Shown piece by piece: positions 3,380 to 3,717 of a DNA stretch of 5,076 nt. Position numbers and translations under genes: made by a program. The stretch's first letter is position 1; the number at the start of each line of letters is the position of its first letter. Source of the stretch: a virus (lineage: Duplodnaviria; Heunggongvirae; Uroviricota; Caudoviricetes); IMG/VR virus record IMGVR_UViG_2563366883_000006; one strand, given 5' to 3'. The notes below the pieces were generated by a model. It searched no databases. It was given only the letters and a program-made list of their open reading frames with translations, and was not told where the DNA came from.

Positions 3380-3393
3380 TCCCGGCACAGATA

Positions 3394-3410
3394 AGAATAA
3401 GTCTTATTCT
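3394..3410. promoter_or_regulatory. 17-bp perfect palindrome AGAATAAGTCTTATTCT, 15-31 bp upstream of the lipoprotein start; candidate operator
   Basis: Perfect inverted repeat around a central T, read directly from the sequence. It overlaps a weak sigma70-like -10 (TAGAAT, minus strand, 3405-3410) with a possible -35 ATGACC (3429-3434) 18 bp away. Confidence 0.3.
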
Positions 3411-3717
3411 AACAATGCCACCCTGTCGGTCATCAATCCTCTGTTTAATGGCAACGACAATTATCCGACTTAAATCACAAATCAGACACATGACATAACA
3501 GAGCTTGCGAGGTAACACATCGTCCGGTTTCTTCCACCATCGCACCGGACCAGCGACCATGAGGGGACAACGCCGCGCTCCGTTAACGCGGTAAACCCCG
3601 GTGTGTATCGTTTTTGATTATCCCCGCACACTCGCGCAGAGGAGTCTCCCGGTCGGGCTGCGGTCTCTGTTAATGCAGGAATACGGCGACAATACCGCGC
3701 ATGGATAATAAGGTCGC

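Follow-up and report, generated by a model that had tools for sequence, protein, structure and literature searches.

Within the late region of an Escherichia coli lambdoid prophage, a noncoding element of about 180 nt appears, from comparison of its homologues, to have evolved as a folded RNA on the late-transcript strand, and it abuts the unrelated upstream region of an accessory lipoprotein gene. The stretch of DNA analyzed, here called the window, comprises 5,076 nt of virus record IMGVR_UViG_2563366883_000006 and carries this late region in reverse orientation. The element occupies positions 3522 to 3702 on the minus strand, reads 5'-AUGCGCGGUAUUGUCG...GGAAGAAACCGGAC-3' on the late-transcript strand, and has sharp homology edges with unrelated flanks. 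It fills much of the gap between a gene for a 74-aa hypothetical protein and a gene for a TonB_C-domain lipoprotein, a gap that extends from 3374 to 3717 when the start at 3373 called by the Prokaryotic Genome Annotation Pipeline (PGAP) is used for the lipoprotein gene. Sequence comparison thus divides the gap into two unrelated modules set side by side by phage mosaicism. We regard it as probable that this composite reading, a structured RNA element of the late transcript next to the promoter region of an accessory gene, or moron, is correct as a whole. For the proposition that the element evolves as a folded RNA on the late strand, the comparative evidence is good, not conclusive.

The composite nature of the gap emerged from BLAST comparisons with phage records, in which homology breaks at 2869/2870, at 3522/3523, and at about 3700. 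One Stx2c phage (L004) agrees with the window over 91-2869 and again over 3523-4449 but has 247 unrelated bp where the window has 2870-3522; in a Stx2a phage (L003), homology is confined to the part from 3522 rightwards; and in JLK-2012 and a Stx1a phage, it runs from the terminase genes to about 3700, beyond which the sequences diverge. The segment from 3523 to 3717 matches 398 phage records and that from 3374 to 3522 only 7, all of which carry the TonB gene. Taken together, the breakpoints and record counts assign 3374-3521 to a TonB_C moron that extends from 2870 to 3521 and set apart 3522-3702 as an independent conserved module, which is also present in phages without the accessory island and predates it. 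An earlier note on this DNA had described the entire gap as GC rich and as part of the island. Overall, its GC content is 50.8%, against 52.5% for the window, with 3389-3522 being AT rich (39.6% GC) and 3523-3702 GC rich (59.4%); the larger part of the gap, as a separate conserved module, does not belong to the island. The suggestion that the gap might hold the promoter of the cargo gene or a small RNA fared better, in that a promoter-like site lies in the gene-proximal 150 bp or so and a conserved structured RNA element occupies 3522-3702, making the small-RNA idea a step in the right direction; the notion of a single regulatory region did not survive.

Alignment of copies from lambda-like phages, 933W-like phages, Shiga toxin (Stx) phages with an HK97-type head, and mEp460 delimits the same conserved block of about 180 nt, with sharp edges and wholly unrelated flanks. 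From 134 fetched loci, we obtained 85 distinct copies that are 75 to 100% identical; the flanks of these copies are of at least 7 kinds on the 5' side and at least 12 on the 3' side, and the 5' and 3' halves of the element have been reshuffled between families. A covariance model matches the window at 3519-3706 on the minus strand (223.7 bits), the sole copy there. Phage lambda carries the element at 46,867-47,035, between bor and lambdap78 and on the rightward late-transcript strand (nhmmer profile, E = 1e-31), and the K-12 prophage DLP12 carries a full-length copy between borD and ybcV. In all of 138 loci, the element is present once and has the orientation of both Rz, which lies upstream, and the small terminase gene, which lies downstream, whichever of three terminase types follows. 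Between Rz and the element, the slot is empty or is occupied by the 74-aa gene, Bor, Rha, PP48, or mEp460_058; beyond the element, it is empty or holds the TonB moron, a DUF1398 gene, or YbcW, and a convergent YlcI gene usually comes next. A scan of genome contigs with the invariant core of the element returned only Escherichia, plus a few contigs of metagenome-assembled genomes that resemble contamination. Genomes of E. coli contain about 4,500 copies of the element.

In the K-12 prophage Qin, only the 3' hairpin is left, at the canonical position. This remnant, GUCCGGC...GCCGGAC, lies on the minus strand at 5467-5497 of locus L137 (approximately 1,637,466-1,637,496 of NC_000913), just upstream of ydfO/ynfO and with the 3' flank that lambda-type copies have; the rest of the element appears to have been replaced by the cspI-gnsB cold shock gene block. 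Within the element of the window, we also observed a 16-nt direct repeat with 81% identity (3563-3578 and 3685-3700), which reads GCGCGGUAUUGUCGCC near the 5' end of the late strand and GCGCGGCGUUGUCCCC in the second hairpin and may be due to chance or be a trace of internal duplication. Neither a literal search for the invariant core nor keyword searches recovered a description of the element in the searchable literature. A CRISPR interference study found lambda bor and lambdap78 to be nonessential and reported nothing on the intergenic region between them (PMC10695390).

A search for a conserved RNA structure across homologous loci, as the earlier note had proposed, yielded a strand-specific fold at 3522-3702. 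RNAalifold, applied to an alignment of 77 distinct copies, gave a consensus of 37 base pairs in three hairpins on the late strand. Hairpin 1 (3605-3695, minus strand) forms the 5' domain and is built of P1 (3689-3695 with 3605-3611), P2 (3669-3683 with 3619-3631), and P3 (3658-3662 with 3635-3639); its tip is variable (CCCG/CGGG), whereas the unpaired joining strand, AUCAAAA (3612-3618), does not vary. When folded alone, this hairpin adopts the identical structure in nine family representatives, at -28 to -35 kcal/mol, and a 9-nt deletion in the Lyz12581 family takes off its tip exactly. Hairpin 2 (3563-3599, minus strand) is central and variable and has P4 (GGG at 3597-3599 with CCC at 3563-3565) enclosing P5 (CCGCG at 3587-3591 with CGCGG at 3573-3577). 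Hairpin 3 (3522-3550, minus strand) pairs GUCCGGU at 3544-3550 with ACCGGAC at 3522-3528 around a 17-nt loop that includes the invariant GGAAGAAAC, and it is present also in the lambda, DLP12, and L131-type copies. The GTTAAC-centered near-palindrome that had been noticed at 3578-3592 does exist, and it corresponds to the loop region of P5 in hairpin 2; as a DNA site it is not supported, for GTTAAC varies between families (GTTTAT, GCTGAC, and TTTCAC), and what is preserved is the flanking CCGCG/CGCGG RNA stem.

The pattern of variation among the copies is that of a maintained pairing. Standard pairs account for 98.7% of the cells in paired columns, against 32 to 63% when the partners are slid by 1 to 3 columns. 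The covariation score is 0.151, compared with 0.117 in shuffled alignments, and double-change cells number 38, compared with 9.6; neither value was reached in any of 500 shuffles. Pairing is kept through substitutions in P2 (UAUUCCC/GGGAAUA to UAUCCCC/GGGGAUA), in P5 (CCGCG/CGCGG to CUGUG/CGCAG and to UUCUCAU/AUGGGAG), and in hairpin 3 (UCCGG/CCGGA to UCCUG/CAGGA), where the pair 169/191 occurs as GC 43 times, as UA 19 times, and as GU 10 times; P1 shows a G-C to A-U swap in a single sequence. The paired columns hold 312 G·U cells and only 9 A·C cells; thus, variation is tolerated where pairing survives on the late strand, even though it is broken on the other. To these counts we added a phylogeny-aware null of the SISSIz kind, in which a neighbor-joining tree was built, the per-column parsimony event counts were kept, and the events were re-placed on the branches with strand-symmetric transitions and transversions; each of the 150 null alignments was refolded. 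The late strand attains -33.7 kcal/mol in the RNAalifold consensus, against -16.5 ± 3.7 kcal/mol in the null (z = -4.64; 0 of 150, the best null alignment reaching -27.4), and the opposite strand attains -15.9 kcal/mol, against -13.3 ± 3.7 (z = -0.68).

A number of observations count against this interpretation. Six pairs changed on both sides, against 3.9 in shuffles, a value that 33 of the 500 shuffles reached and that is not significant alone, and the pair counts are inflated because RNAalifold chose the structure on the same alignment. The copies, all from Escherichia, are close relatives of one another, which keeps the effective number of sequences down to 1.36. Folded as a single sequence, the element does not exceed shuffled sequences in stability (z = 0.22), and folding of this kind is uninformative on both strands. 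Copies with a 17-nt deletion lack P4, which hence is not universal, and the alignment would also permit an alternative local hairpin, GUGUGC/GCACAC, that may compete with P1 and P2. HK97, HK022, and P22 lack the element by both sequence profile and covariance model, which indicates that it is dispensable for a lambdoid late operon. For the moron half of the composite reading, the adverse finding is that a search of the DNA beyond the TonB gene (2900-3047, minus strand) turned up no intrinsic terminator.

We infer that the element is transcribed within the Q-dependent late mRNA, because it lies inside the late operon and has neither a promoter nor a terminator of its own. The RNA would begin with a long, irregular hairpin (P1-P2-P3) at its 5' end, continue with a central hairpin that varies, and close with a 3' hairpin that displays the invariant GGAAGAAAC in its loop. 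Our preferred mechanism, which we advance tentatively and by analogy, is that the element may be a cis-acting intercistronic structure for processing or stability of the late mRNA and would set the 3' end of the lysis gene segment, the 5' end of the packaging segment, or both. In all families, the predicted P1 (7 bp), the internal loop, P2 (11 to 12 bp), and P3 (5 bp) make up a geometry that is compatible with RNase III, not diagnostic of it. In evolution, the element would act also as a homologous-recombination linker between two accessory gene slots. Relaxed homologous recombination of the Red-beta type between short conserved islands has been documented for lambda and DLP12 (PMC3945230), and relaxed recombination at a conserved island between two cargo slots would account for the sharp breakpoints at both of its ends and for its reshuffled halves. 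A broader statement, that lambda and hundreds of E. coli lambdoid prophages, Shiga toxin prophages included, carry between their lysis and packaging genes an unrecognized, functional structured RNA of about 180 nt in the late transcript, whose specific role as a processing hub, a protein-binding platform, or an anti-host RNA explains its fixity amid the exchange of accessory genes, seems to us as apt to prove right as wrong. On the sequence evidence, the element is a candidate for a new family of structured phage RNA.

The main functional rival is that the element may be a trans-acting RNA, excised from the late mRNA or produced from a promoter that differs with the context, that works on targets in host or phage or sequesters an RNA-binding protein such as Hfq or CsrA through the invariant A-rich single strands AUCAAAA and GGAAGAAAC. 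In its favor are the invariance of the unpaired motifs and the conservation of structure while the flanks vary, which implies a function that is independent of the neighboring genes; moreover, many regulatory small RNAs (sRNAs) are encoded in the prophage regions of pathogenic E. coli (PMC4104026; bioRxiv 10.64898/2026.05.13.724894). Nevertheless, we consider it unlikely. The defining signals of an Hfq-type sRNA gene, a promoter of its own and a Rho-independent terminator ending in a U tail, are missing from the element: a consensus scan detected no sigma-70 promoter-like site and no intrinsic terminator inside it, the unrelated 5' flanks rule out a shared upstream promoter, and the sequence after hairpin 3 is variable and not U rich. 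In this it is unlike the Pas and anti-sRNA families, and at 180 nt it is long for an Hfq-dependent sRNA. Rfam 15 returned only two chance eukaryotic matches, far below threshold, for 3380-3760 at an E value of 10 or less, and a search of the whole window at an E value of 1 or less gave nothing in the gap; there was no match to AgvB, AsxR, Esr41, or STnc100, nor any to RF02702, RF02703, RF02676, or RF02076, and no tRNA or tmRNA was found.

Identity with one of the prophage sRNAs already described was considered and rejected on the grounds of genomic position and the absent Rfam matches. AgvB and AsxR are located 3' of PR' and upstream of the lysis genes (PMC4104026); PasA, PasC, and PasD adjoin holin or lysozyme genes, PasB lies inside the structural operon, and all Pas RNAs end in terminator hairpins with U tails (bioRxiv 10.64898/2026.05.13.724894). 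The motifs of the element are absent from the text of one supplement to that preprint (bioRxiv 10.64898/2026.05.13.724894).

It is less probable still that the element functions at the DNA level only, as a recombination linker or trace kept uniform by exchange or as a protein-binding site, with the RNA fold being incidental. Mosaic breakpoints that fall exactly at the edges of the element and the reshuffling of its halves between families are what such a role would produce, and lambda and DLP12 provide a documented precedent for recombination between islands of this kind (PMC3945230). In addition, the records of HK629 and HK630 annotate a leftward promoter, TGGACA-N15-TACAAT, within the 5' arm of the element on the opposite strand. 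In HK630, it lies at 1720-1746 of locus L219, which corresponds to approximately 46,882-46,908 of lambda (minus strand), and it presumably serves bor (Pbor); in lambda, the element overlaps the annotated leftward bor promoter. In lambda- and 933W-type phages, the same DNA would be a promoter on one strand and part of an RNA hairpin on the other. However, the -10 hexamer TACAAT is found only in lambda- and 933W-type copies and is TACGGC or TACAGC in window-type copies; the bor promoter is therefore a lineage-specific feature and was discarded as the conserved function of the element. A purely DNA-level role predicts no strand asymmetry, and the asymmetry observed, in z scores of -4.64 and -0.68 and in the excess of G·U over A·C cells, disfavors it; nor does gene conversion alone explain the compensatory changes.

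We also considered a Chi hotspot in the loop of hairpin 3, where GATGGTGG is one base off Chi, but the late strand of the window has 13 such near-Chi octamers; no copy of the element contains an exact Chi, and the octamer at the position of GATGGTGG varies between families. Across the window, octamers with at most one mismatch to Chi (GCTGGTGG) number 13 on the late strand and 3 on the other, and one exact Chi is located at 4878, in the lysozyme gene. In lambda, Chi is active in the late-strand orientation, against RecBCD entering at the right cos end.

The gene-proximal module has a different history. The block from 2870 to 3521 is absent as a whole from related phages, as in the comparison with the Stx2c phage L004, and its base composition (39.6 to 43.4% GC) departs from that of the window and of the element. 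Its upstream part (3374-3521, minus strand), which is AT rich, was seen only alongside the TonB gene. The 80 viral loci in which the TonB gene is present share at least 98% identity, and each has the moron directly 3' of the element at the same junction. A protein search, in what is a small family, revealed a second moron lineage with about 70% protein identity, represented by L223, a metagenome contig, and L225, an E. coli chromosome with a lambda-type terminase; with this lineage included, the junction between moron and element is constant in 80 plus 3 loci. Block presence or absence and a distinct base composition would qualify 2870-3521 as a moron on sequence grounds, with its own terminator missing from the picture. 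The concept of the moron stems from Juhala et al. 2000, as cited in PMC4104026 and PMC3594210.

A consensus scan of the upstream region found a sole promoter-like site, a candidate sigma-70-type promoter at 3406-3433 on the minus strand, with a -35 hexamer ATGACC (3433-3428), a 16-nt spacer, and an extended -10, TGtTAGAAT (3414-3406). The stretch that includes this extended -10, ATTGTyAGAATAAGAC, is the best-conserved part of the upstream region in the 70% lineage; apart from two blocks, the rest has diverged in L223 and L225. The second block, GTCrGATAATkG, was recognized by alignment of the window with L223 and L225 and was not flagged by the promoter scan; it contains a -10-like hexamer, GATAAT, at 3460-3465 (minus strand) and might act as a second promoter or in regulation. 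The region from 3374 to 3521 would therefore be the private upstream region of the moron, with a predicted extended -10 promoter from which the prophage could express the cargo without recourse to late transcription. This part of the reading is ordinary moron anatomy.

The earlier note had pointed to AGAATAAGTCTTATTCT at 3394-3410, which it placed between a candidate -10 and the ribosome-binding site of the lipoprotein gene, where a repressor operator would typically lie. The sequence is indeed a perfect 8-1-8 inverted repeat, AGAATAAG-T-CTTATTCT. It is positioned differently, however, in that it overlaps the -10 and the predicted start region (near 3395-3400), the -10 of the sole promoter-like site (TAGAAT, 3411-3406) being inside the promoter-proximal arm. 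A perfect dyad at such a place is attractive as an operator at which the neighboring ribbon-helix-helix (DUF3950) protein or a host regulator could block the promoter, for a bound dimer would occlude RNA polymerase, and among copies with at least 98% identity, 1 of its 17 positions varies (a C-to-T variant in five loci), compared with about 10 of 53 nearby. That contrast is statistically not significant, and near-invariance at such identity says little. Dinucleotide shuffles of the window contain 0.13 perfect repeats with 8-bp arms at a spacer of 0 to 1 and 0.40 at a spacer of 0 to 5, so the palindrome is mildly unusual, weakly above chance; a general repeat search of the window did not report it and found weak long-range repeats only. 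In L223 and L225, the right arm and 13 adjacent bases are absent and the -10 block is kept, which argues that the promoter, and not the dyad, has been under selection; the absence of conservation in homologous loci is an outcome that the earlier note itself had named as refuting. The half-site has no second copy in the window, including the vicinity of the DUF3950 gene, and just about 150 bp of the gap falls to the island. We also tried a Fur box, a fitting site for a TonB family gene, and rejected it: the match to GATAATGATAATCATTATC at 3390 is 13 of 19, there are four to five equal or better sites in the window, and the expectation of 0.66 per shuffled window places the likeness at chance level. 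We therefore hold an operator to be improbable; from the sequence comparisons, the palindrome is better described as a lineage-specific feature over the -10 than as a conserved operator.

That the gap might encode a small protein, such as the 81-aa open reading frame (ORF) of 933W-type phages or the 91-aa ORF at 3482-3757 of the window, can be dismissed with little hesitation. Some records do annotate a coding sequence over the homologous segment, and 29 of 77 copies have an uninterrupted frame across the element; however, neither the frame nor the strand nor the extent of the annotated ORFs is constant between records, stops interrupt all three late-strand frames in 46 of the 77 copies, and no Pfam match or PGAP call supports such a protein. 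Single-nucleotide insertions and deletions occur among the copies, the translations of the window and of a 933W-type phage agree for about 35 residues and then diverge through a frameshift halfway, and the variable columns are distributed 34/28/26 by codon position, with no periodicity. By these sequence measures, the element is not protein coding. The labels attached to its ORFs include "Rz-like spanin" and "hypothetical protein"; the former is borne by the 81-aa ORF (L006 1943-2188, VT2phi_272, and other 933W-type RefSeq records) and looks like an annotation error that has spread through Stx phage records, because the ORF is unconserved and overlaps a noncoding element. In the window itself, PGAP places no feature in the gap, as judged from a genome that is 100% identical to window positions 2900-4000, and the mechanical ORFs of 91, 83, 49, 35, and 31 aa have no Pfam match and no frame preserved among homologues. 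The earlier view that there is no credible gene between the 74-aa gene and the lipoprotein gene is thereby borne out.

The genes around the gap conform to a lambdoid late region. On the minus strand are the lysozyme gene, Rz/Rz1 (3966-4436), and the 74-aa hypothetical gene (3718-3942; a PGAP coding sequence with no Pfam match), which occupies the variable slot upstream of the element. Beyond the element lie the lipoprotein gene (3047-3373; 108 aa, ATG at 3373, Shine-Dalgarno sequence GGGA at 3383-3380, "TonB family protein" according to PGAP, and Pfam TonB_C at E = 1.3e-14) and an HNH endonuclease gene (2308-2673), both on the minus strand, followed on that strand by a cos-like repeat region and then the small and large terminase genes. 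The DUF3950 (YlcI/YnfO) gene (2715-2915) is on the plus strand. It converges with the TonB_C gene, the two ending 131 bp apart (2916-3046), with no recognizable terminator in between, and transcripts from the moron promoter would therefore enter the DUF3950 gene in the antisense direction.

Two further regions of the window drew our attention. Between the HNH and small terminase genes, 2050-2230 contains about five copies of a CCAGTTAACAT/GTTAAC motif, among them a 23-bp tandem direct repeat (gccagttaacattttctgaaaaa, twice, at about 2103-2148) and a perfect 18-bp palindrome, CAGTTAACATGTTAACTG, at 2197-2214; these copies look like binding sites of the cosB type for the terminase small subunit next to cos. 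At 4614-4689, between the lysozyme gene and Rz, there is a strong GC-rich hairpin, AAAACCCCG-N-CGGGGTTTTT, with A and T runs flanking it on both strands and a subthreshold Rfam match to the rimP leader (24.8 bits; gathering score, 47). It resembles an intrinsic terminator that works in both directions, lies within the lysis cassette, and suggests a former insertion between R and Rz, to be read through by Q-modified polymerase.

If the reading of the element as a structured RNA is correct, there is a real gap in the parts list of lambda, among the most thoroughly studied of genomes: the element is conserved in the lambda late operon and yet is absent from Rfam and from the searchable literature. 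In Stx and other E. coli prophages, it marks off two accessory slots downstream of the lysis genes, in which bor and the TonB_C lipoprotein gene, both of the envelope or serum resistance class, are exchanged, and an understanding of it could reveal how expression of the late mRNA is partitioned and how cargo genes are shuffled. Because copies reside in lambda and in DLP12 of K-12, direct tests by standard genetics are possible.

Comparison with known systems helps to place each part of the gap. The OR and OL operators of lambda are 17-bp dyads to which the phage repressor binds. The palindrome at 3394-3410 is like them in length, dyad symmetry, and overlap with a promoter and unlike them in being a single copy with a right arm that is not conserved in the homologous moron. 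The TonB_C gene and its upstream region have more in common with lambdoid morons, such as bor and lom of lambda, in that they form an insertion relative to sibling phages, differ in base composition, have a promoter-like site of their own, predicted in this case, and encode an envelope lipoprotein in the accessory slot between Rz and cos where lambda has bor; they differ in having no detectable intrinsic terminator downstream and in the cargo, a lipoprotein with a TonB C-terminal domain rather than Bor.

For the element, the prophage sRNAs AgvB and AsxR (PMC4104026) and PasA to PasD (bioRxiv 10.64898/2026.05.13.724894) offer one comparison, as noncoding RNAs of lambdoid prophages at conserved positions by moron slots; further points of likeness are restriction to Escherichia/Shigella, multiple copies per genome, and mosaic evolution. 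Those RNAs are 51 to 90 nt long, with their own promoters and U-tailed 3' terminator hairpins, whereas the element is about 180 nt long, has neither signal, and lies downstream of Rz. RNase III processing signals are known from the polycistronic mRNAs of phage T7 (R1.1, for example) and from the sib and N leader regions of lambda. Like the element, these are intercistronic sites in a long phage transcript, with no promoter or terminator of their own, that separate functional blocks of genes, and their two stems around an internal loop have a predicted counterpart in P1, the loop, and P2. The element, compared with the T7 sites by predicted fold, has two extra hairpins and invariant single-stranded motifs and shows no sequence similarity to them, and it is absent from several lambdoid phages. 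Finally, the linkers or recombination traces at mosaic junctions of temperate phages (PMC3945230) are, like the element, short conserved islands amid unrelated modules, with breakpoints at or within them and halves that recombine; they are defined by elevated identity only, whereas the element adds to this a strand-specific conservation of pairing.

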